Of a stretch of 64,000 nt of DNA, positions 1-63,894 are shown piece after piece. The DNA is from Mobula hypostoma (lineage: Eukaryota). The stretch is from positions 107,386,001-107,450,000 of the forward strand of contig NC_086107.1 of assembly GCF_963921235.1 (NCBI RefSeq), in the 5' to 3' direction. Position 1 is the stretch's first letter. The number at the start of each line of letters is the position of its first letter. The notes below the pieces were generated by a model. It saw only the letters and a list, made by a program, of their open reading frames with translations, searched no databases and had not been told where the DNA came from. The position numbers were made by a program, and so were the translations under genes.

Positions 1-74
1 AAACATTGGAGCAGAATTGAGGCCGTTTGGCCCATCGAAGTTGCTCTCCCATACATAATAATAACTAATGGGAA

Positions 75-17470: not shown

Positions 17471-17994
17471 GAAGGGTCTTGGCCCAAAACATTGACCATT
17501 TATACTCATTTCCATAGACGCTGAATGACCTGCTGAATTCCTCCGGCACTTTGTGGGTGTTGCTCCAGTCATCAATTGCAAATCATCAATTATCAATATT
17601 ATTAATAACAATAATAATCAATCAGTGTTGAATTCCAGAGGTGAGGGGATAGTGAGTGTAGCATCATGAAACTCTAGTAAAGCTGAAATTACTGGGCAGC
17701 AATTGCTCTTAAGCTTTGGTGTTATACCACGTACAAAGGAGGATGGTGGAGGTTAATGAGGGTCAATTATTCCGGATTCAGAGATATTTATCACACATAA
17801 ATCGAACCATACAGTGAAGTGTGCCATTTGCGTTTACAAACCACACAGCCTAAGGAAGTACTGGGGGCAGCCCATGAGTGTCATCACACACATTCTGGCA
17901 CCAACACGAATCACCTGTCCAGCTCTTGGCTCCATCCCTCCCCCTCCTGTCTTCTCCTATCAGTTTGAATCTCTTACTAGCTCTTCCTTCAGTT

Positions 17995-18030
17995 AGTCCT
18001 GACGAAGGGTCTCAGCCTGAAACGTCGACT
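17995..18030 (+). ncRNA. Minimal type-I hammerhead ribozyme motif
   Basis: AGUC-CUGACGA-AGGGUCUCAGCCU-GAAAC-GUC-GACU. Confidence 0.75.
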
Positions 18031-35132: not shown

Positions 35133-35223
35133 CTAGAGATGCTGCCTGGCCTGCTGCGTTCACCAGCAACTTTGATGTGTGTTGCTTGAATTTCCAGCAT
35201 CTGCAGAATTCCTGTTGTTTTTG
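35133..35223 (+). mobile_element. 91-bp Penelope tail insertion with 15-bp TSD
   Basis: TCACCATTTGGCTTC at 35118-35132 and 35224-35238. Confidence 0.85.
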
Positions 35224-38200
35224 TCACCATTTGGCTTCGGTCATTTCCTGGCAATGCAAGCTGCTGGCTTTTGTCTCTTCACTCAGCTCAGTGTGACCAT
35301 CGTATTTCGAACATTGGCAGGTCGTCCCAAAGCACCTTGCACTGAATGTGTTACTTCTGAAGCGTGATCTGTGTTTGCCGCACGGCATGGATTCCGGATT
35401 AAACGATGACTTGATTTTAAGACATCTGCACATCATTTGCCACAACCGGATTCCAATTCCCATTCCCATTCCGATGTGCCAATCCTCAGCCTCGTCTTGT
35501 GCCAAGATGAGGCCACCCTCAGGATGGAGGAGCAACACCTTATATTCCATCTTGCTACTCTCCAACCTGATGGTATGAATATCAATTTCTCCTTCTGGTG
35601 AACAAATTCCCCCACCCCCTCCTGTACTCCCCACTCTGACCTTTATCTTCCTCTCACCTGTATAAATCTTCCCCCTACGTCCCCTCCTCCTTCTTTTCCT
35701 CCTACTGTCCACTCTCTTCTCCTATCAGATTCTTTCCTGTCCAGCCCTTGACTTTTCCCACCCACCTGGCTTGACCTATCACCTTCCAGCTAGCCTCCTT
35801 CCTCTCCTACCACCTTCTTATTCTGGCATCTTCCCCCTTCCTTCTCCGCCCTGAAGAAGGGTCTTGCCCCAAAACGGTGATTGTTTACTCTTTTCCATGG
35901 ATCCGCCAGCGTTCCATGTGTGGTACTTTGGATTTCCAGTATCTGTAGACTTCAAAGTTCAAAGAAGTTCTAAGTTCATACACGTCACCACATATAACCT
36001 CGAGATTCTTTATCTGCAGGCATAGTTGGGAAATTTATAGAACAGTAACTGTAAACAGGATCGATGAACAACAAACTGTACAAATGTGATCAGAAATAAA
36101 TAGCAATAAATAACTTTCTTGTGTTCTTCATTTGAAATGCCCAGGGACTACACTATATGCGGGTCTGGCCAATGCCTTATAAAGCCTCAGCATTACAAGC
36201 TCCGTTTCAGGTCTTCAGACTCGTGTCCATCAAAGTTTAAAGTAAATTTATTATCTAAGTACATTACATCACCAAATACTACCCTGAGATTCATTTTCTT
36301 GCAGGCATTCACAGTGAGTACAAAGGAACTCAATAGAATCAATGAAAAAAAACTACACACAGAGATGGATGAACAACCGATGTGCAAAGACACAAATTGC
36401 GCAAATATAAAAAGAAAAACAAAATAATAATAATAAATAAATAGATGTGGAATTTGTTGCCACAGGTAGCTGTGGAGGCCAAGTCATTTGGTATTTTTAA
36501 GGCAGAGGTTGATAGATTCTTGATTAGTCAGGGCTTGAAGAGATACGGGGAGAAGGCCGGAGATTGGAGCTCAGAGAGAAATGGATCAGTCATGATGAAA
36601 TGGTGGAGCAGACTCGATGGGCCAAATGGCCTAATTTTGCTCCGGTATCTTATAGTTCTACAGTTAAGTAAAAATTGAGAACATGTGTTGTAGAGTTCTT
36701 GAAATTAAGTCCAAGTTGTGGAATCAGTTCAGCATTGAGATGAGTAAAGTTATCCCTGCTGGTTCAGGAGCCTGGTGGTTGAGGGGTAATAGCTATTCCT
36801 GAGCCTGATGGTGAGAGACCCAAATCTCTCCTGAAGGCAGCGGTGAGAAGGAAGCATGGCAGGAACTGGACGACGGTCTCCCCAGACACTTAATCGGGTC
36901 ATTCAACAGTCCCAGAGACAGAGGCGAAAGGAGGGAATGAGTGAAAGGCAACGTGAAGGAGAAAGGAATACGGAAGGGGGAAAGGACTGAGAGTGAAGCA
37001 GTGTTCACATAAACGAAGCACCATTGCTGTGTAGGATATATAGGAGTCATTTCGCACATAGAAAGATCCCAAAATTTGCAGTGTGATAATGAGGTGGATA
37101 TCTAATATAAGTCCAGTTATGGGAACAGTGTGCATTCTTTTAATAGGACCTCCGTCACGATTACTCTGAGCACTGCTGCTTCACATGATGGAGTCCTCAA
37201 CCCCCTGTTCCCATGACTGCCTGCCCAGATTCTGCTCTATCTCCACGTACAAGTTTACAGATGATACCACCGTAGTGGGTCGCATCTCAAATGACGATGG
37301 GTTGGAGTACAGGATAAGGAAAGAGAGCTGAGTGATATGGTGTCATGACAACAACCTCCCCCTCGTGGTCAGCAAAAGAGCTGGCCATTGACTTCAGTAA
37401 GGGGTCAGTGCACGTGTTTCTGTCTACATCAACAGTACTGACTTTGAGAGGTTGAGAGCGTCACGTTCCTAGGAGTGAAGATCACCAATGGCTTGTCCTG
37501 AACCAAACTGCATTGATATCATGGTCAAGGAAGCTCACCAATGTCTACTTTCTCAGGAGGTAAAGAAATTGGGCAAGTCCCTTTTGATTCTTACTAATTG
37601 CTATCAATGTTCCATAGAAAGCATTCTGTGTGGATGCCTAACAGCTTGGTATGGCAACTGCTCTGCACGTGATTGCAGGAAACTGCGGAGATTTGGACAT
37701 AACGTGGCTCAGTACATCACAGGAATTGGCCTCCCCTCTATTGACTCTGTCTGTACTTCTTGCTGCCTCAGTAAAGCAGCCAACATAATCAAAGACCCTA
37801 CTCACCTCAGCCATATTCTCTCTTCTCTCCTCTCCCATTGAACAGAAGATATCAGCAGGCTCATATTCCACTATCATCGTCTTGAATGGACCTTCTGTAC
37901 ACTAAGATGGACTCTTGCCCTTACAATCGACCCCATTATGATCTTGAACTTTATTGTTTACCTGCCTGCACTTTTTCAGTAACTTTCACACTTTATTCTG
38001 CATTGGTATTATTCTACCTTATTCTAGCTCAATGCAGATTTGATCCATGCAAACATTATGCAAGAGAGGCTTCTCACTGGATCTTGGTCAATGTCGTGCC
38101 TGCCGTATTTACGAGGGTGACCATGGTCTATCCATGACCGTGATTGCTCTTGGCGAATGTTTCTACAGAACTATTTGCCACTGCCTTCTACTGGGCATAT

Positions 38201-39180: not shown

Positions 39181-40973
39181 TACCAGGGGCTCAGTTGATC
39201 ATTTCATCTGAAAGATGGCATCTCCAGCATTGTAGCAATCCCCAGGTCAACCATTACTATGTCAACGTAGATCTTAGCTGCTGGAGTAAAACTTGAACCC
39301 TAAGTTTTAAGGTTGGGAATTGATGGACTGCCCTCACCAACCACATTTCAGGAGGAACTTGTTTGGCAGAAACCCTGAGGGACATCTTTAGGTTGAGAAA
39401 AGCACTACAAAAATGTAAGCCTTTCCTTTCTCTCGTCAATCACTGGGCCATTGAGAAAGCTCAGTTGGTTATTATCGTGAATGAATTGTCCAATTGATTT
39501 CATTTCCATAGTGGACATAGTTCACCAGACAGCTAGTCCTGGTCAATGAAGCAATATCTCATCAGAACGTGTTGAAGGAGCTAATTCCTTCCCTCCCAGC
39601 CCTGAAATATTACTTCTATTAGCAAGTGACTGCTACAGATGGAGCATAAAACCAGCAATAACACAAAAATATTCAGAACAAGGTCATCCCTTGGCACTGT
39701 TCAGCAGGAGGCTAAGGAGGGATATAGATAGGTTAAATGTGTGGGTAAATCTGGCAAATTGAGTATAATGTGATGAATGTGAATTTGTCCATTTTGGTAT
39801 AAAAATTAAGTAAGAGAAATTTAATCTAAACAGTGATTGATTGAAAGACTCCAAGGTAAAGATCTAAACACAAGAGATTCTGCAGATGCTGGAAATCCAG
39901 AGCCACACACACAACATGCTGGTGGAACTCAGCAGGCCAGGCGTCTATTAGGGGAATAAACAGTCGATGTTTTAGACCGAGATCCGTCACCGGGACTGAC
40001 CAAGTGCTGATCTAATTGCCCCAGCACAGGACTCCCAAGAGGCTTGAACGCGGGCACAATAATTGGGGAATCTAGCTTAATGGTATTATTTATTAGAAAA
40101 GGGCAGAGTACTCAAATAGAGAGGTTAATCTTCTTCAGTTAAATGGAGAATCAGTGAGACCACATATGGAGGACAGAGCACTGTGCACTGTACTGGATCT
40201 CCTTGTTTAGGGAAGGATCAAAATGCCTTCAAGGTAGTTTAGAGAAGAATTACAGGACTCGTACATGAAATAGGGTGTATTTTTTTTAATGAGGAAGGGT
40301 TGAATAAGCCCAGGCAAGAGATTCTGCAGATGCTGGAAATCTTGAGCAACAGACACAAAATGCCGGAGGAACTCAACGGGCAGCATCAAGGGAGGGGAAC
40401 GGAGGGTCCCAGACCCTTCATCAGAACTGGAAAGCTTCTGCCCCTTTTCTTTACAGCCTGAAACGTCAGTTGTTTATTCCCCTCCATCGATTCTGCCTGA
40501 CTTGCGGAGTTCCTCCAGCATTTTGTGTTTGTTGAATGAGCCAAGCTTGTTCCTGGTAAAGCTTAGCCAAGTGACAGGTAACTTGATTGAAAGACGGTAC
40601 ATGTGATCCTGAGGGATCATGACAGGGTGGAGGTGGAGAGGAAGTTGATATATTCCCGTGGGAATATCCAGTACGCAATGTTACTCTAAGGCAGCAATGA
40701 GGTAAAACTTGAAAGTGCAAGCAGAGTCTTCGAATATTTTTAACACAGAGGTAAACAGAATCTTGACAGGGAAAGGGTGTGAAACATTATTCTGGGGAGA
40801 TGAGATTGCAGAATTCAATTCAAATTTAATTGTCATTCAATACCCATGAATACAGGCAAACGAGGCACTGTTACTCCAGGGCCAAGGTGCAAAACACAGT
40901 ACCCACAGTCACACCTAGCAAAGGTAAAATATCAGTAAATTATAACCATGCAAATAAAAAGTCCGGATCCTGA

Positions 40974-41430
40974 GTCCATGAATGCCGTAGAACTCTGCAG
41001 TTGACCACAATACAGCCTGCCTTATGCCAGACGAATACTGGGGGCAGCACTGACTCCAGCCTGGATGCCGTGTCATATTGCCCCAGGTGGAGCACACTGG
41101 CTTCGATGTCTCTCTCCTGGCGGCGTAAACAGGCAACACCGCGGCTTGAGGACCCATGTCCGTGAATGCCACAGAAGTCCACGGTTGATCACAATACAGC
41201 TTGTCTTTTGTGGAGCAAACACAAGAGGGCAGCACTGATTCCAGCCTGGACAGTGTGCCATATCGCCCCCTGGTGGAGCACACCAGTCCTGACGAAGGGT
41301 CTCGGCCAGAAACGTCCACTGTACCTCTTCCTAGAGATGCTGCCTGGCCTGCTGCGTTCACCAGCAACTTTGATGTGTGTAGCTTCAACATCTCTCTCCT
41401 GGCGGCTGTAAACAGGTGACACGGCAGCAA
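40974..41430. repeat. Diverged ~185-bp tandem dimer; the second unit carries a hammerhead mini-element (41283-41380)
   Basis: tgaatgcc..cacaatacagc..gggcagcactga.tccagcctgga..ggtggagcacac occurs twice. Confidence 0.75.
41285..41320 (+). ncRNA. Minimal hammerhead motif; core intact, stems mutated
   Basis: AGUC-CUGACGA-AGGGUCUCGGCCA-GAAAC-GUC-CACU. Confidence 0.6.
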
Positions 41431-43282: not shown

Positions 43283-45504
43283 ACCACCCTCCCAACCATA
43301 AACAAGAGAAAATCTGCAGATGCTGTAAATCCAAGCAACACACCCAAAATACTGAGTTCCCTCATCTTCTTAGGAATGTCCCATAATTTTTGAATCCTCA
43401 TTACAAGTCTTAATTTTTTTTTAATAGCTGGAAGTACACAGATCCTCATTCTGAAATATCCATTTCCCTACGTAGATGCTGCCTGATCTGCTGAGTTCCT
43501 CCAGCTTTTTGCTTGTGGCTCTGGAAATGCACAACAGGTCAGGCAGTCTCTAAGGAGAGAGACACCGAGAGCTCATGCACCTGACTACCTAGAAGTTCCA
43601 TAGAGAACATGTTGTTTGTACGCTGATACATTCTGGACATCTGTACCTGCGTACTGCAGCATGTAGGTACAGAAGGAACATCTCTCCTCTCGCTCTTTAA
43701 AGTTGAGTTTACTGCCAGGTGCACAAATACCCTGAAGTTCTGGTACAATGAAAAACTTGCTTGCAGCAGCACCTTCAGCACGTAGATCCAGACAACAACG
43801 CAGAATATGACTTACCCAAGACAGGGAAGAAATGGACTGTGCAAAAGAGACATTAGTGCAAAAAAAAAACACACTCAGAGACAAGTCTATGGTAGTGCAA
43901 GGAATGGTGTATTGTGTTCTGTTGCTGGGGTTGGATCAGGGTGGTGCATGTTGCTTCCCTGAACTTTCCACAAAGTTCAGGCTTGCTCTATAATATACTA
44001 GCCCGGTAGTTGAATGCACTTCCTATCTGACCCCTCAGATTTAAGCCTGAGAGATAAAGACACAGCATGTGAGTTCCAGAGATGCCCCCTGCCTTGCTGA
44101 GCTCCTCCAGCATTTTGTATGTGTTGCTAAAGATAAAGACTACCTTTATTTGTCACATCTACATGGAAACATTAAAGCATTTAGTGAAATATAAAAGCAG
44201 CATTTTGTATCGAGGATTGTGCTGTGGGCACAGCTTCTGGCACCAACATCGCATGCCTATGACTTAATAACCCTAACCCATACATCTTCAGAATGGGTGA
44301 GGAAACTGGAGCACCCACTGGAAATCCACGTGGTCACAGGAAGGGTGTATAAACTCCTTACAAACTGGGGTGGGAATTGAAAACTGATCTTACAGCAGGC
44401 TCTGTAAAGTAATAAGCTAACTGCAAAGCTGCCGTGTGGTGCCACATCTGCCCCAGCTCATATCTCATTTGAATGGTAACCATTAAAAAGCTAAGTGATG
44501 ACATATTTTAATTCACTGTACAGTGCCTTAGCTCACAACAGTTTGATTAAATGCATTATTTTGTAATTCCTGATGTTTAAACATCAATTTTAATTGTTCT
44601 AAATGCTTCATATTATCATGCTGGGGGGGGGGGCGGTGGAGGTGGGATCCGAGCCTTGGTTGCTCTCTTGCAAGATCACAGTGGAAGTCTGGAAGTCACT
44701 GGGAGTTGTGTGGATGGGAATGGTCAACGTACCCAGGGAGTACAGCGATGGGCAAATGTGGGCATAGGTTGGGATCAGATGGTGAACGAAGTTCAAAGCA
44801 ACTTTATTATCAAAGTATGTATAGGTCACCATATATCACCCTGAGATTCATTTTCTTGTGGGCATTCACACAGTAGTACAAAGAAACGCAATACAATCAA
44901 TGATAAACTACACCCGGTACAGACTAAATCGAGAGGGTGAGGTCCAGGCACCAGAACGTATCGAGGCTATTGAACCCAATGTTTGGACGACGATTTAGGC
45001 ACTGGGCCAGATTGAAAAAGTTGTGGCTGGAGACAGGGGATAGGTCAGTTCAGCTCGCTGCTCCACGACGTTGGCCCAGCTCTGTACCGAACTACGGGTC
45101 TCAGACTCCCTTTGTGGACTTCAGTTCAGAACGCAATTTCCTTGCGGTTATTATTTGCATGATTTGTTTGTTACTCTCCCTGCCCACTGCGTGTTCGATG
45201 GTCTTTTTTTTAATTGGTTCTTTTGGGTTTCTTTGTTTCGTGGCTGCCTGTTAGGAGACAAATCTCATGGTTGTATAACATATACATACTTTGATCATAA
45301 ATGTACTTTGAACTTTGAACAAGCAAAGAGAAACACCAACGTGCATAAAAAGACAAACAGTGCAAATACAAAAACATATAACTATAAAAAGCAAATAAAT
45401 AAATAATAACAACAGGAATTCTGCAGATGCTGGAAATTCAAGCAACACACATCAAAGTTGCTGGTGAACGCAGCAGGCCAGGCAGCATCTATAGGAAGAG
45501 GCGC

Positions 45505-45540
45505 AGTCGACGTTTCAGGCCGAGACCCTTCGTCAGGACT
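45505..45540 (-). ncRNA. Minimal type-I hammerhead motif heading a ~130-bp insert (45410-45541)
   Basis: AGUC-CUGACGA-AGGGUCUCGGCCU-GAAAC-GUC-GACU. Confidence 0.75.
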
Positions 45541-47338: not shown

Positions 47339-48504
47339 GCTCAAATCTCTCAGGTGGGACCAACCCCTGATCTTCTGACACACAGGGGAAAGGACTGCCT
47401 ACTCTGCCACAGCAGACTCAGTGCACAACCTTCCCTGATGTCTAACAGGAAGTGGGTAATGCATCACAGGAAGTTGAGGGGATGCCAATGTATGACTAGG
47501 GCAGATCTGATGGTTACTTCATGTCCATGATTTTCATGTGCTCACTACAGAATGTTTGTCTGACATTCATAGATTTATTATATAACGGGAGAACACAATG
47601 TTTGCCCATTGAACCTATGCCAGCTCTCCGCAGAGAAATCTTCTCCGTGACGTTTTCCTGTTCATCCACAAGTTCTCTTAAGTTTGTATCTGATTTTCTT
47701 TGTAAAGCATTGATAATTTCTGCTTCTCCCAGTGTGTAGGCGACATTCCAGGAGATTACCCCTTGCTGCTCAAAGGAAAAGGTTCTTCCTAACATCCTTT
47801 TCTCTCTTTTGCCCAAAACCTTAAATATGAACCACTGGTCATCCCATAAGACCATCAGACATAGAAGCAGAACTAGGCCATTCAGCATATTGAGACTGCT
47901 CTGCCACTTGATCATAGTTGCTTAATTTTCTCTCTCAACACCATTCTCCTGCCTTCTCCCTGTAACCCTCCAAGAGGACCACAACCTTGGGGTTTGGTCA
48001 ATGATCCGGAGAGCTATGTAGGCTGGAGTCAGGGCTTTATGCTTTGGCTCTTGGTGGGGTCACCAAACAGGTCAAAGGGTAGAGGCCAGGTTTGGATGTT
48101 CAGCTCAGGGCTAACAACCCCGTCTGGTCAAAACAAATTGTTACAGAAAGAGAAATGAAGAATCTTATATCTGTGTGTGATCGTATTTCTGAGTCTCCAT
48201 CCAGAAATTGCATGACTGACAGTAGTAAAAACTGAGAGGAAACTACTGGCATGATGAAGGAAGCCCTAAACACCACCAAAATCAAGAACTATACCTGGGG
48301 CACATAGAGAAGATGGCCAAGGACAGACAGGGATGGAGGACCTTTATTGCTACCCGAAATTCCAACAGCATAACAGGCAGTAACTGACTAACTAACTCCC
48401 TGTAACTTTTGATATTTTCTATAATCAAGAACCTATTATCTGCTGCTTTAAATATACCCAATCACATGACTAACTGTAATTCTGCCACCAACAATGGTAT
48501 CAAT

Positions 48505-49690
48505 GAATGGGAGCTGCTTCATGCACCCATGCTGAGCTCGTTAATTTCATCAACTTTGCCTCCACTTCCACCTTGCCCTTAAGTTCGCTTGGTCCATTTC
48601 TGGTGCCTCTCTCCCCTTTCTCAATTTCTGTCTCCATCTTTGAAGACAAACTGTCTACTGATATCTTTAATAAACATACAGATTTCCATAGCTATCTTGA
48701 CAATACCTCTTCTCATCCTGCGTCTGGTCCCAGGATAAGATTTTTCTTTCCAGGACATAGGAGGTGTCCTCCTTCTTTAAAGAACAGGGTTTCCATTCCT
48801 CCACATTGATACTGGCCTCACCCACATCTTCTTCATTTCTCGGGCATCCGTGCTCACCTCATTTTCCGACCGCTTTAACAGGAACAAAGTTCCTCTCATC
48901 TTTACCTACCACCCCATCAGCCTCTGCATCCAACACATTATTCTCTGCAACTTCCACCATCTTCAACAAGACTTTACCACAAGGCACATCTTTACCACTG
49001 CCCCCCACTCTCCACTTTCTGCAGGGATTTCTCTCTCCATGATTCCCTTGTCCATTCGTCTCTCCCCACTATCCCTGGAACTGGCACAAGTACTACACCT
49101 GCCCAATCACATCCTCCGCCACCTCCATTCAGAACCCTAAACAGTCCTTCCAGGTGAGGCAACACTTCACCTGAGAATCTGTTATGGTCACCTACTGTAC
49201 CTGTTGCTCCTGAAACAACCTTATCTACATTGGTGAGACCAAACGTAAATTGAGGGACCGCTTTGTCAAGCACCTCCACTCCATCCACAGAAAGCGGAAT
49301 TTCCCGGTTGTTAATTCCTATCCCCATTCCCATTCCGACATGTCAGTTCATTGCCTCCTCTTCTGCCACAAAGTGGCCACACTCAGTTGGAGGAGCAAAC
49401 ACCTCATATTCCATCTTGTTAGCATCTAACCCAACGGTATGAACATGGATTTCTCCAACTTCTGGTAAATTTCCCCCCTTCCCTCTTCTTCAATTCCCCA
49501 CTCGGGCCTCTTACCTCTTCTCCTTGCCTGTCTATCATCTCCCCCTGATGCCCCTCCTCTTTCCTTTCCTCCTGTGGTCCACTCTCCTCTCATATCAGAT
49601 TCCTTCTTTTCCAGCCCTTTACCCTTGCCAGCTTCCTATTTCATCCCCACTCTCCCATCCTCCTGATTTCACCTAACACCTTCGAGCTTG
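48505..49690 (+). mobile_element. Penelope-like element, decayed RT C-terminus plus GIY-YIG endonuclease
   Basis: LSTDIFNKHTDFHSYLDNTSSHP; VPLIFTYHP; YCTCCS*NNLIYIGETKRKLRDRFVKH. Confidence 0.88.
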
Positions 49691-50464
49691 TACATACAAA
49701 ATGTTGGAGGAACTCAGCAGGTCAGGCAGCTAATATGGAAAAGAGTAAACAGTCAATGGTTTGGGCTGAGACCTTTCATCAATACTCTTGTATTGACTGC
49801 TTTTCCTTGTTTACTTTATCTAAATCATTGCAATTGAAACATTTAGGGTGATTAGAACAATCACAGCTAATTAAAACAAGCACGTTACACCATCTTAAAA
49901 ATTTCTTCCCTCAGGAAGTTAATCTGATCAGCCACTCCAGTTAGACACCCTGCCCCCCCCCTCTATCCACTACCTCAGTCACTGCACTGTAATGTAAACA
50001 TTTTAAACAGCTTTTTATAATCATGTTATATATTTTAAATACATGCTGATATTTACTGATGCACATTTTATTCCATATTCGTACTTCTAACTTTAATTTC
50101 ATATAATTCATATGTTGAATGGTGTTGTTTTTGTTACGTCACAAAAACACACCACAGTAAATTTCTGATACATGTAAATGTATATGGCGAAGAAAATTGA
50201 AGCTTCATCCTTGATCTCCTCTGCACAATCTTGGAGACTTTGACATCCTTCCTATTTTTGGTGGTCAATAATTGAGTTGTGGTCTAACCAGTGCATAAGA
50301 TCTAACGAAAGTGTAGCTATGTGCCTTCCTGCTCAGTGCCTCTGTTGATGAAGTCTGCTTTGCTCACTATTCCATCAGCACGTCCTTCTGCTTTCAGAAA
50401 ATCTATGCAAAAGAACCCAGTCTTCCTGCACACTCTTCAGAATCATGCCTTTAAGTTTATATAA

Positions 50465-51097: not shown

Positions 51098-53389
51098 ATA
51101 TAAACTTCCTCCATCCCTTATGCTAAAATGCATTCCCTCACAGCTCCTCTGCTACCTTACCCAACACATTCCCTGCACTGTCTCCAGCTGCCTCAGTAAA
51201 TGTAATCAAAGACCCCACCCACCCCGGGCATTCTCTCTTCTCCCCCTCCCATGGGGCAGAAGATACAAAAGTCTGAAAGCATGTATCAGTAGGCTCAAGG
51301 ACAAACTCTACCCACCCACCCCATGCCAACACCTCACAATTTCCCTTGATTCTACCTTGCACCTTATTATCTATCTACCTACGCTGCACTTTCTCTATAC
51401 CTGTTACACTTTATTCTGCGCTCTCCTGTTGTCTTACCTTATACTCCCTCAATGCACTGCTTACTGATTTGATCTGTGCCGGTATTATGTAAGCACATTA
51501 TTACATATAATATGTAAGCAAATTACTGCACCTCAAGACATCTGACAATAGTAAACCAATTCCAATTTGGCCAGCCTGTCTATCTCTTCCTCACCTGGCA
51601 ATGCAGTACTGGGATGTATATGTGCAGAGTGTGATTGTTGTGTATAGACAGAGTCTGTGGAGGGGTGGGGAGGGGGTTGGTTGCTGTGATGTCTGAACGT
51701 AGTCCTGGAGGTTGTTCAGGAGCAGGAACTGGCCTTGTTCCTCCCCACACTCATGCCACCTTTTAATAAGATCATGCCTGCTCTAGTCATGACATAGCTC
51801 CACTCCCCTGCTCAGCAGCCATCACCCCCGATAGTCCTAAAACCCATCTACATCAGCCTTGAAACGGTACAATAATTCAGCACATTTTTCTCCAAGAGGT
51901 AGTTCCGCAGCTTCACTCCTTCTGTCTTTCGTAGCTCCTTCTTAAAAGGGCAACTCCTTATTTGGAAGCTATGATCTCTAAACCCCATCCAAATCCCACC
52001 TCCACACCACCCCCCAAGGGGAAACATCTACACCTACCCTGTCATGTCCCCTCAATGAGATCACATCTCATTATTCTAAACCCGACTGAGTAGAGGTACA
52101 ATCTGCTCAGCCTTTCCTCATCAGAAAAGTTCAACTTTCAAAGTGAATGTGTTACCAAATTCTGTATGTGTCACAACTTACAACGCTGAGGTCTGTTTAC
52201 TTGCGGGGCATTCATAGTGAATACAAGAAACACAACTGAATCAATGTAAGACTGTGCACAACAGGGCAGACAAGCAGCCATATAAATGAACAAACAAACA
52301 ATAAATAAATAGATAGATTGATAGAGAGATAAATAGATAATAGGTAGATAAATCTGCAAGCAAGCCAGAAATATTGAGAACCTGAGCTGAAGAGTTCTTG
52401 AAGGTGAGTCCAAAGTTTGTGGGAACAGTTTAGTGATGGGCTGTGAGTGAAGGTATGAGAGCACTGTCATTCTAGGTGTCAGGTTACTGAAGTTGAGTTG
52501 CCTCCAATGGAAGTAGAACTCTCCTTTAAGGAAACCAAAACTGTATGCAAGTCCTCTCCAGATTACAACAGTGTCCTATTCCTGAGAGCTCTTAGTAAAC
52601 AGAACAGCTGATAAGCCAGAACTGTGGCCACCAGACAATGTATTTACATAAAAACTCAGGCCCACCAAGGTCAACATGTAGTTGAAACAACCATTCAAGT
52701 ACTGTCACAAACTATGTTCCAACATGACAGGTGTTGCTTGTGACCCTGCAGGAGCCGACAAATCCCTCTCCCAAATGCTTTATTGTATGTACGGGCGCAC
52801 AAATCAAAGGTTCAATGCAAATTGATTGTCAACATACTTATTTATCAACATATACTACCCTGAGAGTTATTTTCTTGCAGGAATTCACAGTGGAACAAAG
52901 AAATACAATAGAATCAATGAAGAACTACACGCAGGCAGATAAGTAATCAATTTGTGCCAAAGAAGGCTAACTTTGCAAACACAAAAAAGTAAATAATTTG
53001 ATAAACAAATATACAGATTATAAATAAATAGTCAAATAGTGTGAACAACAACAATAAATAAATAATACTGAGAATATGAGATGTGGAGACCTTGAAAGTG
53101 AATCCATAGCTTGTGTTCACGAATCAGTTCAGAGTTGGGTTGAGTGAAGTTATCCCCTCTGCTTCAAGAACCTGATGATTGAGGGGTAATAATGGTTCCT
53201 GAACCTGGTGGTGTGGGACTGAAGGCTCCTGTACCTCCTACCTGATGGCAGTAGTGAGAAGAGAGCACAGCCTGGATGGTGGGGGTCCATGGTGATGGAT
53301 GCTGTTTTCTAGTGGCAGTGCTCTATGTAGATGTGCAGGGCAAATCAGGTGTCCAGAGCCTGGGAAGGACCTGTAGTACAGCTACTAGG

Positions 53390-53972
53390 ACTTGATGTTT
53401 CAATCCTTATGGTAAGTTGGCACTCTCAATGTTGGCAGTGGGCTTGGAGAGGTGACAAGGAGGGAGGGTAGGTACGTCATCGGGGTCATCAGGTGGGCAC
53501 CCTCCTTCTTTGACGTTTCGTTGATAAGCCCACGATGTCTCCAGAGGGCTCAACAGTGCTACCTGGCGTCCCAGATACACCCCCCTCAGTTCCATACCCT
53601 CCTGTCTTCATCTTGCAGCCCAGTTGTTGTCTTTCCTTTTAATCCAAATCCAATTGCTGCTTTCTTCTGCTGCATTTGACAAGGACTTGATTGCTTGTTG
53701 GAGGGAGTGGCTCCTCACCCCCATCTTCTTCAATAGGCTGGTCGTAGATGTAGCAACGAATCCCCTGCATCCCACTTCTACAGGGAAAATCTTGGTCTTC
53801 CAGCCATTCTGGGCAGCTTCAGTGGCCAGTTCAGAGTACTTGGTCTTTTTCCTCTCATAAGCTTCTTCGACACCATCTTCCCATGGTACTGTCAATTCCA
53901 CAACATATGCCAGCTTGGCTGTTGTGGACCACAGGACCATAGGACCATGTCTGGCCAGAGTGTTGTAGCGTA
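53390..53972 (-). mobile_element. Hero/R2-group non-LTR retrotransposon 3' fragment (restriction-like endonuclease plus 3' UTR)
   Basis: ATTLWPDMVL..YVVELTVPWEDGVEEAYERKKTKY..FPVEVGCRGF..SNWIWIKR (PD..E, K..KY RLE motifs). Confidence 0.85.
53477..53549 (-). ncRNA. Putative non-circularly permuted hammerhead ribozyme in the Hero 3' UTR
   Basis: All three core segments (AUC, GAAA, CUGAUGA), perfect stem I GUGGGC/GCCCAC, stem III GACAU/ACGUC, extra helix GCCCUCU/GGAGGGU. Confidence 0.65.
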
Positions 53973-55629
53973 GTATATTCCTCCTTCAAACCTTCCTACC
54001 AGCACAGTCACATAATCATCATGTTGCCTTCCAAAGGCCACTTGCAAGTCTTTGATATCCACCTGTGTCCATCTTCACTTTTTATTAAGCTCCTACATCC
54101 ATTATTTCAATCAAAAAATACTAAAAAATAATGGAAAGTCAAGACTTAAGTAGGAGATGCTGGAAGTAGTCAGTAAGTGAAGCAGTATCAGTGTGGAGAA
54201 GAGAATCAATATCTCAGCTCAAGACTCTTCTGGTGGAACGAGAAGATTGAGACTATATGTTTTAATTGCAGGGGGATGGAGAGAGCATTGGGAATATCAC
54301 GATAGGGCCCAGATCAATTTTGTCAAGGTAGCAATTAAATGAACCGGCAGTTTGAAACAGAAAGAAAAAAGGTATTAAATTAAAAACGGAAAGATATAGC
54401 CAAGTTTGTGAATGGGTAGAATGTACAGGAACGGTAGGTCCCACACCACTAGGTTCAGGAACAGTTATCACCCTGAAACCATCAGGCTCCTGAACCGGTG
54501 TGGATAACTTCACTCACCACAACTCTGAACTGATTCTATGACCTGCAGGTTCACTGTCAAGGGACCTGTAACTCATGTTCTCAGTATTGATTCTTTTTTA
54601 GCTTGCACAATTTGGCATTTTTGCAGGTTGGTTGTTTGCTAGTCTTTGTTTGTTAGAGGGGTTGAACTTTCCAAAAAATCCATTGTATTTCTTTATTTTC
54701 CTGTAAATGCCTGCAATAAAATGAGTCTGGAGGTAGCATATATGGTAGTATAGGGTAGTATGTGGTAGCCTATACATTGGTAATTAATTTACTTTGAATT
54801 TTTAAGTACTGAGGGCTGTGATACTCTCATTCGGAAAATGAGGTGCTATTTCTCAACCTTATGTTGAACACTTTTGAAGTAATATTTGCAGGCAAGAGAG
54901 CTCAGAGTGGGATTTCAACAGACAGGTAAATGGAAGCTCAGGGTCATCCTTGTCAGAATCACAAATGGAATCAGGTTATCAGGTTTAATGTCATCGGCAT
55001 TAAAATCTGTTGTCTTTGCAGCAGCAGAACATTGCAATACATAATGATTAGAAAAAAATGTGAATTACAGTAATTGGTGTGTATGTTTGTGTGTGTTTGT
55101 TCATTTATATTTATTTACAATTATAAATATATATTGTATATTGAATAGTTAAATTAAAAAATAGTGCAAAAATAGAAATAAAAAGTAGTGAGGTAGTGTG
55201 TGTGGGTTCACTTGAGGGACTGAGTTATCGAGAGGGGTTGAGTGAGCTTGGACTTTATCCATTGAAGTGTAGGGGAATGACGGCTAATCTTATAGAGGTG
55301 TATAAAATTGTGAGGACCATAAATAAGGTGAATGCAGTCTTTTTCCAGGGCCAGGAAATCAAGAAGTAGAAGGGATAGTTTTAATGTGAGCGGGAAGAGA
55401 TTTACCACAAATTTGAGAGACAATTTTTTTCATCCAGAGGATGGTCTATATGGAATGAGCTGGCAGAGTAAGTGGTTGGGGCAGATTATATTAATAACAT
55501 TTAAAGGGCACTTGAACCTATGTATGGATAAGAAAGGTTAAGAGGGATATAGGACCAGCTTAAATGGGAACCTTGGCCAATATGGGTGGTTGGGTCAAAT
55601 GGCTTATCTCCATGGTGATGACTCCATTT

Positions 55630-57480
55630 CTCTTGGGTCTCTGGATGTGGGGAAAAAGAAGGGAAAATGTTCCAATCTATGAATGAATAAGTAGATGCTA
55701 TAAGAAGAAGATCAATTGGCAGAGGTGGAAGAGTAAACCAGGTATTTGTAAGGGAGTGGTCTTTTTGGAATGAGGAAGGGGAAGTGGAAGGAAAGATACA
55801 TCTGATGGTGGAATCCCACTGCAGGCATCCATAATTATGGAGGGAGGTTGGGAGTAGGAAAGAGGGCATCTGGTTGAGAGCCTCAGCGACTCTGGTAGAG
55901 GAGATGAACTAGTTAAAGAGAAAGAAAAATAACTCAAAGATACCTTGTGGAACGCCTCATCGTCAAAGCAGATATGACAAAGAAACTGGGGGAATTGGAA
56001 TCTGTCCCTATCCAGATACAGGATGGGAGGAGGTACAGGTGAAATAGGTGTGAGAGTCAGTGAGCTTCTAAAGCATATTGGTCCCTTATCTATCCCCTAA
56101 GATGGAGGTGGATATATCAAGAAAGGGAAGGGAAGAATTATGGACAATGTAGAAATGAGGACGGTGGAAAATGACAGAATTATAAAGACACAGTGAGGGG
56201 CACCAATTCAGTCATCAGTGTATATTTTTGAAAGAAAAGCAAAGGGAAGGGCTTAAATAGGATGGAAACATGGCCTATTCTATATACCCAATGAAGAGAC
56301 AGGCATGGCTTGGATCCACATGAGGTCCCACAGCTACACCTTTAACATAGTGAGGGTGAAAGTATTGAAGAAAAATCAACACACAAAATGCTGGAGGAAC
56401 TCAATGGCTTAATGGTTCCATTTAATACAGAGAATGTATACAATATACACCCTATAATTCTCACTCTCCGCAGACATCCTTGAAACAGAAAGCAAAACCC
56501 AAAGAATGAATGATGGAAAAAAGATGTAAGAATCCAAAGCCTCCTGCCCCCTCCCATGCACAAGCAGCAGTAAGCAGCATCAACCCTCCCCCTACTTATT
56601 CTAGCATAAAGCATCGGCCTTCCACCACCTCAATATGTCAGGCAGCATCTATGGAGGGGAATAAACAGTCAACATTTCGGACTGTAATTCATCCTGATGA
56701 ATTTGTCTTCCAATTCTATTTAATACCTTAACCTGGTTCTAACCCCTTCCCTTCCAGTCCTGGTGAAGGGCCTTGGTCCAAAATGTTGACTGTTTATTTC
56801 TCTCCATTGATGCTGCTGCCTGGCCTGCTGAGTTCCTCCAGTATTTCGTGTGTGTTGCTTTGGATTTCCAGCATCTGCAGAATGCCTTGTGTTTATGGAT
56901 TGAAGGAAAAAGCCATTGAATATTGGTGTAAGCTCAGCCATGTGAAGACAAGAACCTGGCAAGGGCTGGTGAAGAGCTCTCAGATTATTCAGGTATGGGA
57001 TGGAGGGATAGGGGGATTGGATGTTTGTGGTGAAGATAAGCAGGCTGAGATCAGGAAAATGGAGGCTACCAAAGTGGCAGAGGGCATTAGTCTTGTTGTA
57101 AATGTGGATAAGTGGAGAAAAAGTAACTTTAGGAGAGGAGGAAATAAATTCTACAAGACAAGTGCTGAAACAGTGGGTATACTAAAGGGGTCCATCGCAT
57201 GGACCTTGGGAAGAAGGTAGAATTGGGTTGTGTGGGTTTTGGGAACAATAAGGCTGGAAGCTGAGGAGGGAAGCTCTCACAAGGAAAATGAAATCAGTGA
57301 CTGGAAGACAAAGGCCCGATGTTCAGAGGGTTCATGGTCTGGGAAGGCGTGAAGGGGTGTGTGATAGCCATCTGCAATGTAGAGGTCGATTCATCATACA
57401 TTGATAGCATCGTTCTTGTCAGCAGGTTCTGGCTGACCAGTGTACTGCAGGTTCAGAGGTGGGTTGGTTGGTGTGAATAA
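55630..57480 (-). mobile_element. Old, fragmented Penelope-like element (RT region), interrupted at ~56345-56890
   Basis: PADK near 57420; KGVAVG..PSHACLFIGYIE near 56290-56343, matching the Penelope RT G.AMG..PSYA.LF motif. Confidence 0.6.
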
Positions 57481-57539
57481 AGGACGGCAGGCTCATTGTC
57501 AACTCTCCTTGCAGAACCTGCTTCTTCTCTGAGTCGGTG

Positions 57540-58030
57540 ATCTTGGCTGAGACTCCAGTGCAGTTCTGTGGGTGTTTTGCAAGGTCAATGACATACTGCT
57601 GTCTGCTCCCTTGTGCCACTCCCGACTCGGGGAGGCAGTGACGAAAAGTAACAATACAGGACTCTTTCGAGGCTCTGTGATTGGGATAAGTACACTTTAA
57701 ATCCTTTAACGAGGATCCATTGGAGGGCAAGTCTGGTGCTAGCAGCTGCAGTAATTCCAGCTCCAAAAACGTACTGCTGCAGTTAAAAAGCACGTAGTTG
57801 GATTTTGGCATCAGGATGGCGGTCTGCCGCTAGGCAAGCTACCGTCTGTGCCAGCCCCTGCTTCTCGGCATACTTTTAGCTGAGTGTTCTGGGCGTCCAA
57901 AGACGTTTTAAAGAAGAGCAGGGCTGATTCCCCTTGTGACCTGTGCCAATGTCCCTTACATCACTTAGATGGTCACAATGGTGTCTGTGGCAGCTTACGG
58001 TGCATAAATTGGCAGTTGACATTACAGTAT
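57540..58030 (+). mobile_element. Degenerate Deu-domain SINE interrupted by an rRNA fragment
   Basis: ggctgagactccagtgcagt..gtctgc before, and aagaagagcaggg..gccaat..tgtggcagctt..aaattggc after, the 18S piece. Confidence 0.55.
57616..57909 (+). pseudogene. 18S rRNA pseudogene fragment (~295 bp, includes the 530-loop region)
   Basis: ccactcccgac.cggggagg.agtgacgaaaa.taacaatacaggactctttcgagg..gaggatccattggagggcaagtctggtgc..gtaattccagctccaa..gcagttaaaaagc.cgtagttgga; GCCGCGGTAA decayed to GCTGCAGTAA. Confidence 0.95.
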
Positions 58031-60347
58031 TTCTCATGTCATCTTGTAGGCCATTCAGCCCATTGAATCTATGCTGGCTTTCAAAGCATTTCCATCATTT
58101 CTCTGCCCCCAACTCATTCCCCTGTAAACAATTCCTGTTTTTAACACCATGCCAATTCTCTGACCTCCCACTTACACCAGGGGAAATTTACATTTGACAA
58201 TCAGTCTAACAACCAGTGCATTGTTGGAAAGTGGGAGCAAACCACAGTGGTCACAGGAGACACAGGAGATTCTGCAGATGCTGTAAGTCTTGAGCAACGC
58301 TCACAAAACGCGGAAGAGCAAGTCAGGCAGCGTCTATGGAGAGGAAAAAATGGTCGACATTTTGAGCAAAGCCCTTCGGCCCCCTTCCTTTTATAGTCCC
58401 ATTGAAGGGTCTCAGCTCAAATCGTCGACTGTTTATTTCCTTCCATAGGTGCCGCCTGACCTTCTGAGTTCCTCCAGCATTCTGTGCGTGTTGTTTATAG
58501 GAAGAATATGCAAATTCCACATGGGAAGGTCAGGATCAAGCCTGGGCTGCCGGAACAGTGAGGCAGCTGCACTACCCGCTGCACAGCCGTGCCTGCGATA
58601 GCTGTGAAATATGTGACATTGTGAAGTACTGTGAAATATTGTCCGAATGTTAGCTGTTAGATCATAAGTCCATAAGACATAGGAGCAGAACTAGGCCATT
58701 TGGTCCATCGAGTTGCTCTACCATTCCATCATTCCTGATTTATCATCCCACTGATTCCCCCATTCTCCTGACTTCTCCCCCGTAACCTTTGATGCCCTGG
58801 CTAATCAAGAACCCATCAGCCTCTGTTTTAAATGTACTCAATGACTTGGCCATCACAGTCAACTGTGCCAATGAATTCCACCAGATTCACCACCCCCTGG
58901 CTAAAGAAATTCTTCTTCATCTCTGTTCTAAATGGCATCCTTCTATCCTTAGGCTGTGCCCCCTGTTCCTAGACTCACCCACTATAGGAAACATCCACCC
59001 TATCTAGGCCTTTCAATATTCAATAGGTTTCAATGAGGTCCCTCCTCGTTCTTCCAAGCTCCAGTGAGTTCAGTCCCAGAGCCATCGAAAGTTCCTCATG
59101 TGTTAACCCTTTCATTGCTGGAAGCATTTTCATGAACCTCCTGTGGACCCTCTCCAACGCCAGCACATCCTTTCTTAGATAATTGGCCCAAAGCTGCTCG
59201 TAATACTCTAAGCATGGTCTGACCACTGCCTTATTTTAGCCTTAGTATTAATCCTTGCTCTCATATCCTAGTCCTCTTGAAATGAACACTAATGTTGCAT
59301 TTGCCTTCCTTACCACCGACTCCTCCTGCAGGTTAAACTTTAGGGAATCCTGCATGAGGGCTCCCAGGTCTCTTCGTTAGAATTAGAACGCATGGATTTC
59401 TTCTGCGTCCTCCAGCTTCCACCCACATCCCAGAGACGTGCAGATTGGTAGGTTAATTGGTCTCTGCAAATCGCCCCTGTTGTGTAGTAGAACAGCAGTG
59501 TGCCGATGGGGATGTGGAGAGAATAAAGTGGGTTACGGTGGGATCTATGTGAAAATGGAGGGTTGATGGGACGGCACAGTAGTGCGGCAGTTAGCATAAC
59601 GCGATTACAGCACCTGCTACCTGGGTTCAATTCAGCCACTGTCTGCACAGAGTTTCTACGTTCTCCCTGTGACTGCAAGGATTTCCTCGGGGTGCTCCGC
59701 TTTCCTCCCACATTTCAAAGACATACAGGTTAGTAGGTTAATTCGGCACATAGTTGTAATTGGGCGACAAGAGCTCGCTGGCCGGTCTTGCTGTATCTCT
59801 AAATAAATCAATAGCTAGATGGATAGATAGATAAATAGATAGATAGATAGATAGATAGATAGAAATGTCTAGCATGAATTCAGTGAGCCTCAGGGCCTGT
59901 TTCCATGTTGTATTATACAACACTACTGAAGACTGAAATCTGAAGATTGATTGGAAGTCTGGAATTCGAAGCCCGATGGCCAAAGTCTGGAGACTGGAGA
60001 CATGTGCTGGAATTGGAGGACTGCCCATGTGAGCAAAGGGGAGGGGCTCATTTTTAAATTATTTTTTTATTATCTCCCCTTTCTTTCTCCCTCTCTTTTT
60101 TCTCCCTCTGTCTCTCTCACTATAACTCTTTGCCTGCTCTCCATCTTCCTCTGGTGCTCCCCTCTCCCTTTCTTTCTCCCTAGGCCTCCCGTCCCATGAT
60201 CCTCTCCCTTCTCCAGCCTCATATCCCTTTTGCCAATCAACTGTCCAGCTCTTGGCTCCATCCATCCCCCTCCTGTCTTCTCCTATCATTTCGGATCTCC
60301 CCCTCCACCTCCCACTTTCAAATTTCTTACACTCAATTCTTTCAGTT

Positions 60348-60383
60348 AGTCCTGATGAAGGGTCTCAGCCCGAAACGTCGACT
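60348..60383 (+). ncRNA. Minimal type-I hammerhead ribozyme motif (best-preserved copy)
   Basis: AGUC-CUGAUGA-A-GGGU(CUCA)GCCC-GAAAC-GUC-GACU. Confidence 0.85.
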
Positions 60384-60624
60384 GTACCTCTTCCCATAGA
60401 TGCTGCCTGGCCTGCTGCGTTCCACCAGTATTTTGTGTGTGGGGGTTGTTTTGCTGTTTTTTTTGTTGCTTGTTGTGTTGTGTTCTGTGTTGATCTGCTG
60501 AGCATTGTGGGCGTCCTATGTTGACGCTGGATTGTGTGGTGACACTTGCAGGCTGCCCCCAGCACACCTCTAGGTGTGTTGGTCATTAATGCAATTGATG
60601 CCTTTCACTGGATGTTTCAATACA

Positions 60625-61180
60625 CACTCAATGACCATGTTATTAGGCACATCTGTATACCTGCTCGCTAATGCAAATATCCAATCAGCCAATCATGTGA
60701 CAGCAGCTCAATGCATAAATGCATGCAGATGTGGTCAAGGGGGTCAGTTGTTTTCAGACTAAACATCAGAATGAGGAAGAAATGTGATCTGAGTGACTTT
60801 GATCGTTGGTGCCAGACGGGGTGGTTTGAGCGTCTCAGAAACTGCTGATTTCTTGGGATGTTCACACACAACAATCTCTAGAGTTCACAGAGAACGTTGC
60901 AAAAAACTCAAAAAACATCCAGAGTAGCAGTTTTGTGGAAGAAAATGCCTTGTTAATGAGAGAGGTCAGGGGAGAATAGCCATACTGCTTAAGTCGACAG
61001 GAAGATGACAGTAGCTCAAACAACTATGCGTTACAACAGTGGTGTGCAGAAGAGCATCTCTGAATGCACAACACATCGAACTTTGAAGTGGAAGGGTTAC
61101 AGCAGCAGAAGATCATGAACGCGCACTTAGTGGCCACTTTATTCAGTTCAGAAGGTTCCTAACAAAGTGGCCACTGAGTG
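60625..61180 (+). mobile_element. Tc1-like derivative, complete end to end
   Basis: Left TIR cactcaatgacca..tattagg; MRKKCDLSDFDR coding remnant; right end is a 57-bp hairpin ending tggccactgagtg|TA. Confidence 0.85.
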
Positions 61181-63894
61181 TACATGTGATAAATCTGAAT
61201 CAACAATCCAGGCTCTTGAATTAAAGGGGATAACTTCACTCAGCTTCACTTCCTCCAACATTGAAATGTTCCCACAGCCAATGCACTGGTTGTTTCCCAC
61301 AACCATTGTCTCACCCCTGCAGTATCTAAGACAACTTCAAGGAGTGGTGCCTTAGGAAGGCAGTGTCATCACAAAGGACCTCCACCTCCCAGGACATACC
61401 CTCTTCACACTGTTACCTTTGGGAAGGAGATACAGAAGCCTGAAGGCACACACTCAATGATTCAGGAACAGGTTCTTCCCCTCTGCCACCCGATTTCTAA
61501 ATGGACATTGAACACATGAACACCACCTCACAACTTTTCATTTCTGTATTTTGTTTGCATTACTTATTTTTGACTTAACTATTTAATAGACATATATATA
61601 CTTACTGTAATTTAGTTTGTTCTGTATATTTATTTAGCATGTATTTCATTGTACTGCTGCTGTAAAGTTAACCAATTTCACAACACATGCTGGTGATATT
61701 AAACCTGATTCTGCTTCGGATTCACTTTCAAGGACTCTTCATCTAATTTTCTTGATATATATTGCTTATTTACTGAGTATGCCCACTAAAAATCGAATCT
61801 CGGGGTTGTACATGGTGACATATATGCACTTTGATAATAAATTAGCTTTGAACTTTGAATCCTAATCTAAGAAACTATCAAAATGCAAGCCCCTCTCAGA
61901 GTAAAATAATTTCATACACTGATTCAAACAGCACCATCTCTGTGCCATGGCGAAGATAAAGTCAGCGTTACAATTCCCTTTATCTTTGCTTCTCTCCTTT
62001 GCCTCCATGACAAACTGATGAATGTTTGAAATGGTTGATGCTGGAGTCTGCAAAGAGCAAAAATTCCCAGATCAGGCAACAAAATGAAAGCTTCTCAGAG
62101 TTTCCAGCACCCACTCCCCCACCCTTTCCAAGACCTTCATCCCCTTGCAGAGAGCAAACAGAGCCCAGGCTTCAGGAAAATGACTGCTATTCGACTGCAC
62201 TAATTCAATAGGCCAAAATCTGCCTTTGAAGGGGCAAGTACTGTCCCTTTGTGCTTTCCTCTAAGTCCTTTGTTCTTACAACAGTGAGGGAGGGCAACAG
62301 ACCCCTGCATCAGTTAAAAGTACCCAGAGTACGCATAGGTGCACTGGAGACTGAAGATTCAGATTTCTCTATCCGGCGCCAACATAGCATTCCATAATGT
62401 TTGGCAGAACAACAATAGCAGAAAAAACCTGATATGGCCACACATTTTAATTCCACATCCCATTCCCATTCTGATATGTCTATCCACGGCCTCCTCTACT
62501 GTAAAGATGAAGCCACACTCAGGTTGGAGGAACAACACCTTATATTCCGTCTGGGTAGCCTCCAAACTGATGGCATGAACATTGACTTTTCAAATTTCCG
62601 CTAATGCCCCACCTCCCCCTCGTACCCCATCTGTTATTTATTTATATACACACATTCTTTTTCTCCCTCTGTCCCTCTGACTATACCCCTTGCCCATCCT
62701 CTGGGTTTTTCCCCGCTCTCCCTTTTCCTTCTCCCTGGACCTCCTGTTCCATGATCCTCTCATATCCCTTTTGCCAATCATCTGTCCAGCTCTTGGCTCC
62801 ATCCCTCCCCCTCCTGTCTTCTCCTATCATTTCAGATCTCCCCCTCCCCCTCCCACTTTCAAATCTCTTACTAGCTCTTCCTTCAGTTAGTCCTGACAAA
62901 GGGTCTCGGCCCGAAACGTCAACTGTACCTCTTCCTAGAGATGCTGCCTGGCCTGCTGCGTTCACCAGCAACTTTGATGTGTGTTGCTTGAATTTCCAGC
63001 ATCTGCAGAATTCCTCGTGTTTGCGTTTTTAAAAGCAAAATAAGCCCTTTTCTCACCCTCTCACCCACCAACCAATCACAAACACAGATCGGCCTCCATC
63101 TGCAGGACAACCCCCCTCCTGGCCTCCAACCTCCAGTCCTTGGCCCCGGACTCACAGACATTGGGCCTCTGACCTCTGGACAGGCCAGGGGCTTCGACCT
63201 TCAGGGCTCAATCTTTGGACTCGCCAGAGTTAGTCTTTGATTTTCAGGCTTCAATCGTTGGACTCGCCAATTTTTGTCCTCAACCTTCGGGCTTCAACCT
63301 TCGGATTTACTGTCCTCTGGACTTCAGCCTCCAGCTTTGACCTCTGGAATCCACCAGCCTCTGAGAATGAGCCCCAGGACTTGCCCCATGATTCTCAGAT
63401 TATGGACATTGACCTTTGGATTCGCTGTCTCCCAGACCTCATGCTCTAGGTTTGCCAACTCACCTCATTGAGCCTCCAGTTCCAGGACTCACTGACCTTG
63501 GACTTCCAACCCTAGGACTTTGAACTTGCCTTTGGTGATGATCTTAGATTAGATTTGATTAGCTTTATTTGTCACATGTACATTAAAACATAGAATGAAG
63601 TGTGTCGTTTGCATCAAATAAAATCAGCAAGGACTGTGCTTGGTAGCCTGCAAGTGTCACCATACTTCCAGTACTAACATAGCATCCGCACAGCTCATTA
63701 ACCCTAACCATATATTGTTTGGAACGTGAGCGGACTACCTGGAGGAACCCAGTTAGTCACAGGGAGAATGTACAACCTCCTTACAGACGGTGGTGGGAAT
63801 CGAACCCCAATCTTACAACTAGGGCTCTGAAACATGGCTCTAATTGCTAAGCTACAAAGTTGCCTTTGTGTCCTCACTGGCCACAGGATTAACA

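Follow-up and report, generated by a model that had tools for sequence, protein, structure and literature searches.

Minimal hammerhead motifs in the probable remains of Penelope-like retrotransposons in a 64-kb stretch of the Mobula hypostoma genome

Results

A canonical minimal hammerhead and its relatives

The DNA analysed here is a stretch of 64,000 nucleotides from Mobula hypostoma, hereafter the window. Reading its sequence locates a 36-mer exactly at 60348-60383(+), with the following parts.

60348-60383 (+): fully canonical minimal type-I hammerhead, the sole fully canonical copy
60348-60351 (+): stem I 5' strand, AGUC
60352-60358 (+): core, CUGAUGA
60359 (+): extra A
60360-60371 (+): stem II, GGGU, loop CUCA, GCCC
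60372-60374 (+): GAA
60375-60378 (+): ACGU palindrome (15.1-16.1), no loop
60379 (+): C17, followed by the predicted cut between 60379 and 60380
60380-60383 (+): stem I 3' strand, GACU

The site is GUC, stem I has four Watson-Crick pairs, and stem II has three together with a U.G pair. A degenerate pattern allowing at most three mismatches matched seven copies in the window, at 7272-7307(-), 13848-13883(-), 17995, 41285, 45505-45540(-), 60348 and 62889, whereas 100 dinucleotide shuffles gave an expectation of 0.00 and a largest count of 0. A profile of hammerhead and tail matched 33 pieces at E<1, compared to one in the reversed window (E 0.75), although these matches are partly circular because the profile was built from the same copies. 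Part of the hammerhead is retained in 27 of the 33 pieces (21 span it whole, six only its 3' half), so the earlier note's figure of about 20 copies in 64 kb is fair; all 11 decayed copies that it named are also present, within a few bases of the positions given. The pieces occur at about one per 2 kb. Row 13904, a duplicate, and row 56408, unaligned in the 5'- and 3'-end alignment, were excluded before counting. The copies divide into 16 plus and 13 minus, so any long RNA from this region holds antisense copies. The Rfam search gave no hammerhead match to the motif at E<=5, and the tail pattern had no match among metagenome or viral contigs. The copies and pairs discussed below are listed here.

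7272-7307 (-): hammerhead, 11/11 core, GUU site; inverted tail at the 5' side of its unit
13848-13883 (-): counterpart of the 7307 copy in an 801-bp duplicated block; GUU site, 11/11 core
17995-18030 (+): hammerhead, 11/11 core, G10.1-U11.1 wobble; predicted to be plausibly competent
41285-41320 (+): hammerhead, core letters kept, G10.1.A11.1 and C2.1.C1.1 mismatches; begins at the first base of stem I
45505-45540 (-): hammerhead, 11/11 core, G10.1-U11.1; 16-bp A/T-rich target duplication
62889-62924 (+): hammerhead with G8A and G1.1A
6705-6740 (-): decayed copy, G8A and A9G
7937-7972 (+): decayed copy, four core changes, GUC-GACU kept
9967-10002 (-): decayed copy, with UTR and the end of the ORF upstream of it as far as ~10370
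16004-16039 (+): core letters kept, 3' strand lost, with UTR and the end of the ORF upstream of it, starting at ~15654
27984-28019 (+): heavily decayed copy
32320-32355 (+): core letters kept, stem II broken; unit from ~32076, inverted tail 32028-32075
35847-35882 (+): decayed copy, with UTR and the end of the ORF upstream of it, starting at ~35450
39962-39997 (-): decayed copy starting at stem I
40306-40532: head-to-head inverted pair of partial copies, 40428(-) and 40456(+), tails outward
49751-49786 (-): decayed copy, tail-to-tail with an ORF remnant
56627-56895: two copies in divergent orientation, 56627-56700(-) partial and 56756-56791(+) decayed
58260-58490: head-to-head inverted pair, 58377(-) and decayed copy 58395-58430(+), tails outward

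Integrity of the copies

All 11 core nucleotides are retained in 8 of the 27 copies, and the ACGU palindrome is present in 60348 and seven others. The combination of a complete core, Watson-Crick stem I, G10.1-C11.1, ACGU and GUC occurs in 60348 alone among the 27. Five of the 27 look catalytically plausible, as predicted from their sequence. The six intact cores of the earlier note were thus overstated: 60348 is canonical and four others are plausible, two of these being one insertion, but 41285 is broken, its mismatches hitting the closing pairs of stems I and II, which rules it out as an intact copy. The copies ending at 7307 and 13883 cannot be independent insertions, because they share the same 12-bp target duplication within a local 801-bp duplication (7030-7830 and 13611-14405, 93.6% identical) that contains a Penelope insertion with an inverted tail. 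The unit of the 7307 copy is 7238-7406, with the target duplication at 7226-37 and 7407-18. The G8A change previously read at 62889 is correct; together with G1.1A, it makes this copy poor both as enzyme and as substrate. The 58395 copy, like 7937, retains the GUC-GACU substrate half.

The extra base that separates position 9 from 10.1 is A in 19 of 20 copies, while N7 is T in nine, C in five and A in six, and variation between subfamilies is concentrated at N7 and loop 2. In an alignment of 13 copies, 91% of stem cells are paired, compared to 14-49% in slid controls; no compensatory covariation above shuffles was detected in the stems of these 13 copies, which are related and of low divergence.

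The carrier element

Three segments of the window show the surroundings of the hammerhead.

60059-60448 (+): 5'-truncated Penelope-like 3' end, with pyrimidine-rich UTR, the 60348 hammerhead and a short tail to ~+102
62449-63013 (+): longer sister, with ORF C-terminus 62449-62595, UTR, the 62889 hammerhead and a long tail
48500-49690 (+): Penelope-like ORF remnant with frameshifts and stops, then UTR, stopping short of its hammerhead

The extent of the 60348 element comes from a local alignment to the 62889 copy; BLAST (60097-60441 vs 62658-62983) gives 81.5% identity. Copies 10002, 16004, 35847 and 62889 all have about 250-300 nt of pyrimidine-rich UTR and an ORF end upstream. The longest ORF remnant, 48500-49470, contains a GIY-YIG domain near 49187-49297 (Pfam PF01541, E 3.3e-05, above cut-off). 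Two of ten candidates proved to be homologues of this remnant, both of them stingray gene models (P0002 and P0003) that have absorbed the element; they are labelled 'divergent protein kinase domain 1C isoform X2' and 'mucin-2 isoform X2', and are misnamed Penelope-like pieces. The remnant is 56-57% identical to them, and the ORF end at 62449-62595 matches the C-terminus of the GIY-YIG protein P0002 in 40 of 49 residues (82%, E 1e-26). Both homologues carry a CxxxCxxC linker before GIY-YIG, which is decayed in the window remnant. Taken alone, these two stingray matches would place the host among ray-like cartilaginous fish. The GIY-YIG remnant, the 82% identity of the ORF end and the linker together indicate an endonuclease-bearing Penelope-like element. 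The minimal type-I hammerhead, the loop-less palindromic stem III and the Penelope-like carrier of the earlier note are borne out by motif, GIY-YIG and ORF end. A CX2-5CxxC linker between RT and EN defines the Neptune and Nematis clades in the account of PMC8557442; with this definition, the linker in the homologues suggests that the carrier is probably of Neptune type. No RT Pfam match was found in the remnant, P0002 or P0003, the window remnants being 5'-truncated before the RT core, and no tandem pseudo-LTR-ORF-pseudo-LTR unit lies within the 64-kb window.

The 3' ends of the copies fall mostly near +100-107 or +133-142, and an optional 30-40-bp tail at the 3' end is described for Penelope-like elements in PMC8557442 and PMC11167929. 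Head-to-head inverted units with outward tails are seen among the window copies, an arrangement reported for such elements in PMC8557442 and PMC3846280. Three insertions are flanked by target duplications, with lengths of 15 bp (35129), 16 bp (45540) and 12 bp (7307/13883, one insertion); a duplication of at least 10 bp was absent in 12 of the 14 units tested by script, 60348 included. The insertion at 45540 spans 45408-45540 and begins at the first base of stem I.

Several other arrangements were observed. A tail-only insertion of ~92 bp, starting near +42 and with a 15-bp target duplication, lies at 35118-35238. At 48500-49786, the ORF remnant and UTR end ~60 nt before the hammerhead and adjoin an inverted hammerhead-tail copy, the tail-to-tail arrangement being the rarer one. 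The older subfamily (10260(-), 35599(+), 49468(+)) has GT right after the last ORF codons and polypyrimidine-YAG before the hammerhead, so its UTR could be an intron. The sequence of the stingray model P0002 diverges directly after the ORF end, and the GT donor is absent in the 62889 copy.

The window also holds two young LINE 3' ends, 16356-17617(-) and 23739-24545(-), which are 95.9% identical over 807 bp and have open C-terminal frames with Pfam ALKBH8_N and weak RVT_1 matches; a hammerhead-tail copy is inserted near 17470 within the first. A mutated 18S rDNA fragment of ~200 bp at ~57.6-57.8 kb, dispersed, is likely a pseudogene piece. Minisatellite arrays at 8160-8806 and 11556-13355 contain open frames of up to 670 codons and are apparently not genes. 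Hairpins at 14519-14585 and 61119-61185 gave weak mir-9256 scores below the gathering score and probably belong to a small DNA transposon as its terminal inverted repeats.

Decay of the copies

The 14 old copies are mismatched at 23/117 non-CpG core positions, 30/155 stem positions, 29/69 CpG positions of the hammerhead and 56/435 tail positions, after exclusion of the truncated columns of 15975, 40448 and 23460 from the core count and of 15975, 35819 and 23460 from the tail count. The core is thus no better kept than the flanking tail (23/117 vs 56/435), which in these old copies is the outcome that the earlier note had named as refuting its claim, although the tail appears conserved in part through bias, because the copies were found largely through it. 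At C11.1pG12, the harmless outcome TG (10) and the lethal outcome CA (8) are similarly frequent (p=0.81), and G12 is freely lost in old copies. Pooling three CpGs gives 25 of the better-tolerated TG vs 13 CA (p=0.073), an excess for which GUU master lineages could be the source. In five young copies, non-CpG changes number 0/105 in the hammerhead vs 8/194 in the tail (p=0.054), seven of the eight coming from 60348, a divergent sub-branch. The pooled excess and the contrast in the young copies speak against neutral decay, and all of these decay comparisons involve small samples of copies. The free variation of N7 is as expected if master elements kept a working motif, and constraint in master elements with neutral decay in the copies appears to be the best reading of the substitutions.

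5' ends at stem I

Of 29 aligned 5' ends, eight lie no more than 2 nt from the base that opens stem I (-2..+2), and none lies at the cut site (+30..34), a clustering with a post-hoc p of about 1e-5 under a uniform null.

6741, 7938, 39999, 40428, 41285, 45540: 5' ends of short copies at stem I

Copies 49786 and 23456 also start at stem I by eye and lie outside the 8/29 count. The stem I start reads TCAGTC or TTAGTC, which is initiator-like (the initiator consensus is YYANWYY) and also has the polypyrimidine-YAG form of a 3' splice site.

These starts might mark the short copies as a defined class, either run-off cDNAs or a short non-autonomous hammerhead element, a tentative proposal that we rate at well under even odds. 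The hammerhead would then lie at the very 5' end of an element RNA that is mobilised uncleaved and, in the run-off version, copying would proceed from internal tail start sites to the RNA 5' end, with the first base of stem I as A+1. The concentration at stem I to the exclusion of the cut site speaks for such a class, as do the boundaries of 41285 and 45540, which are crisp against a reference of the same subfamily, and the initiator-like sites reported in pseudo-LTRs of other Penelope elements (PMC3846280, PMC2377424). Nevertheless, two of the eight ends are doubtful (56700 is an inverted scrap and 27986 is very decayed), alignment to another subfamily may stop at UTR divergence and mimic a boundary, and the starts could also stem from template jumping of the RT at the hairpin, or from the sequence resembling a 3' splice site where stem I begins. 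According to PMC4209133, the 5' end of helix I is where an intron of Drosophila Penelope stops; the promoter of that element is described as internal (PMC2377424). A spliced origin of the short copies was rejected: most keep the AG that splicing removes, and they have no common upstream exon. Provided that reverse transcription begins within the tail and proceeds as far as the RNA 5' end, the short copies would mark that end and come from uncleaved RNA; were the clustering to hold genome-wide, it would locate the RNA start of the element and show that uncleaved RNA gets copied.

Folding models

Stem III cannot close within a monomer, since no loop separates C15.2 from G16.2. The earlier statement that a monomer cannot fold therefore stands as far as the hammerhead is concerned, but a stable inactive hairpin is predicted to form instead: ViennaRNA gives a hairpin of about -10 kcal/mol (z about -1) in which the core GAYG pairs with CGUC, hiding core and cut site. 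Where an active element is arranged in tandem, two neighbouring hammerheads would exchange strands. The core of each, made up of the stem I 5' strand, CUGANGA, stem II and GAAAC, would take the GUC-GACU of its partner as substrate, which makes stem I intermolecular as in the double-hammerhead model of PMC4209133, and the two ACGU palindromes would form a shared 4-bp stem III. For 60348, this active double hammerhead is predicted to lie 6-9 kcal/mol above two free monomers, at <=1e-7 of the dimer ensemble, and three other copies modelled in the same way were worse. Neither core tertiary contacts nor Mg2+ enter these models, which are uncalibrated on a known active motif, so the penalty is overstated. 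In the experiments presented in PMC4209133, the minimal hammerhead was inactive as a monomer and weak as a dimer; PMC11167929 reports that protein is required, that cleavage is dispensable for insertion and that no RNA ends occur at the site. The modelled inactive monomer and costly dimer agree with these experiments. Cleavage of the dimer would be slow, probably needing the protein of the element.

Discussion

The main text of Cervera and De la Pena 2014 (PMC4209133) describes minimal hammerheads (min-HHRs) in the pseudo-LTRs of metazoan Penelope-like elements, at thousands of copies per vertebrate genome. The window motif is like them in being of type I, with no loop 3 and a palindromic 15.2-16.2, in the extra base between 9 and 10.1 followed by G10.1-C11.1, in a helix I of 4-5 bp (four Watson-Crick pairs in 60348), and in the 11 core nucleotides (CUGANGA, GAAA, U16.1) and NUH site, all present in 60348. 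Mostly solo copies with some close opposite-strand pairs are a further likeness. The differences are a stem II of 4 bp, whereas the schistosome motifs of that paper have 7-8, and a local density far above that of the 4,000-9,000 copies per genome given there for coelacanth and Xenopus; cartilaginous fish are unnamed in its main results and discussion. As cited in PMC6765202 and PMC6466107, Lunse, Weinberg and Breaker (RNA Biol 14:1499) found that Penelope hammerheads with a short stem III cleave as dimers, and the window family resembles these variants in its diminished palindromic stem III and its Penelope link. It is also like the Anolis carolinensis Poseidon element PAc, as presented in PMC11167929, in having a hammerhead in a pseudo-LTR, two classes of 3' end and, at 45540, an A/T-rich target. 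PAc belongs to the Penelope/Poseidon clade, its ORF starting inside the hammerhead, whereas the homologues of the window family carry the Cys linker typical of Neptune and Nematis. Non-LTR retrozymes, reported in one chondrichthyan (bioRxiv 10.64898/2026.07.22.740005), likewise have a type-I hammerhead and are non-coding and Penelope-derived, but the retrozymes described there form tandem arrays with a hammerhead per unit while the window copies are dispersed or inverted. Self-BLAST and the profile scan show no tandem array in the window, and a retrozyme identity was rejected.

We estimate a probability of roughly 85% that the pieces are dead, 5'-truncated 3' ends (the pseudo-LTR: UTR, hammerhead and optional tail) of endonuclease-bearing, probably Neptune-type Penelope-like retrotransposons. 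This best explanation rests on sequence, the GIY-YIG remnant, the inverted units, the target duplications and the pattern of decay. The motif would be selected in master elements, as suggested by the variation of N7 and loop 2 while the rest is common to the subfamilies. Scattered copies would be passengers, reverse-transcribed from uncleaved RNA at internal tail start sites, and would now be decaying mainly by CpG deamination. Such copies would perform no meaningful cutting of host RNA.

The earlier note had instead inferred that any long transcript across the region holds several half-ribozymes of one strand that could pair and cut it; in its wider form, such halves would join inside one host transcript or across two. 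We regard this as highly improbable, even if five of the 27 copies look catalytically plausible, the substrate half needs only GUC-GACU (retained by more copies, such as 7937 and 58395), a piece occurs about every 2 kb, and the structure models omit chaperones as well as core tertiary contacts and Mg2+. The proposal is unsupported: no host exon was recognized, monomers are predicted to fold into an inactive hairpin, and antisense copies are predicted to pair much more strongly. Pfam matches among the 394 non-repeat ORFs of at least 40 residues comprise two of LINE type and no host-gene domain, in a search that short exons can escape. The sequencing runs listed for 52000-61000 comprise six small-share entries and no RNA run, a result that weighs neither for nor against a transcript. 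Beyond the penalty modelled for the 60348 dimer, the two pairs modelled in cis, which are the closest usable ones, would cost 25.2 kcal/mol (7307 on 6740) and 21.2 kcal/mol (60348 on 58395), and the shortest distance between plausible ribozymes of one strand is 6.6 kb for the minus strand and 42 kb for the plus strand. Antisense duplexes with 60348 are predicted at -69 to -156 kcal/mol, compared to -30 to -33 for sense ones and -44 for one control stretch. The free loss of G12 in old copies also argues against cutting, and a tandem arrangement is required in eukaryotes according to one paper (PMC6466107). Equally hard to credit is a distributed ribozyme system, in which a few competent cores, helped by protein or chaperones, would cut the substrate halves of their neighbours in long nascent RNAs; if true, it would shape where copies persist and possibly regulate host genes. 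Least probable of all, and very unlikely, is a chance hammerhead-like terminal hairpin of the repeat rather than a ribozyme relic: the missing Rfam match, the plain predicted hairpin with its unremarkable z and the lack of covariation above shuffles would fit it, but the repeat agrees with the min-HHR as defined in PMC4209133 in its complete core of 11 nucleotides, in the base inserted after A9, in G10.1-C11.1, in the palindrome at 15.2-16.2 and in its place within the Penelope 3' repeat, and variation across subfamilies is concentrated at N7 and loop 2.

The remains of Penelope-like elements thus represent a kind of element that is already known, which makes the significance of the family small. 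PMC4209133 already describes this architecture, the scattering of solo copies and a weak cleavage confined to dimers, and its supplements, like the Lunse paper, may include the window family. The literature searched (titles and abstract starts, mostly open-access, outside Repbase and Dfam) contained no description of this ray family or of the 5'-end clustering. The high copy number makes this a good genome for testing what Penelope hammerheads do, since a great many copies are available for measuring the 5' ends of insertions, strand bias in introns and decay of the core.
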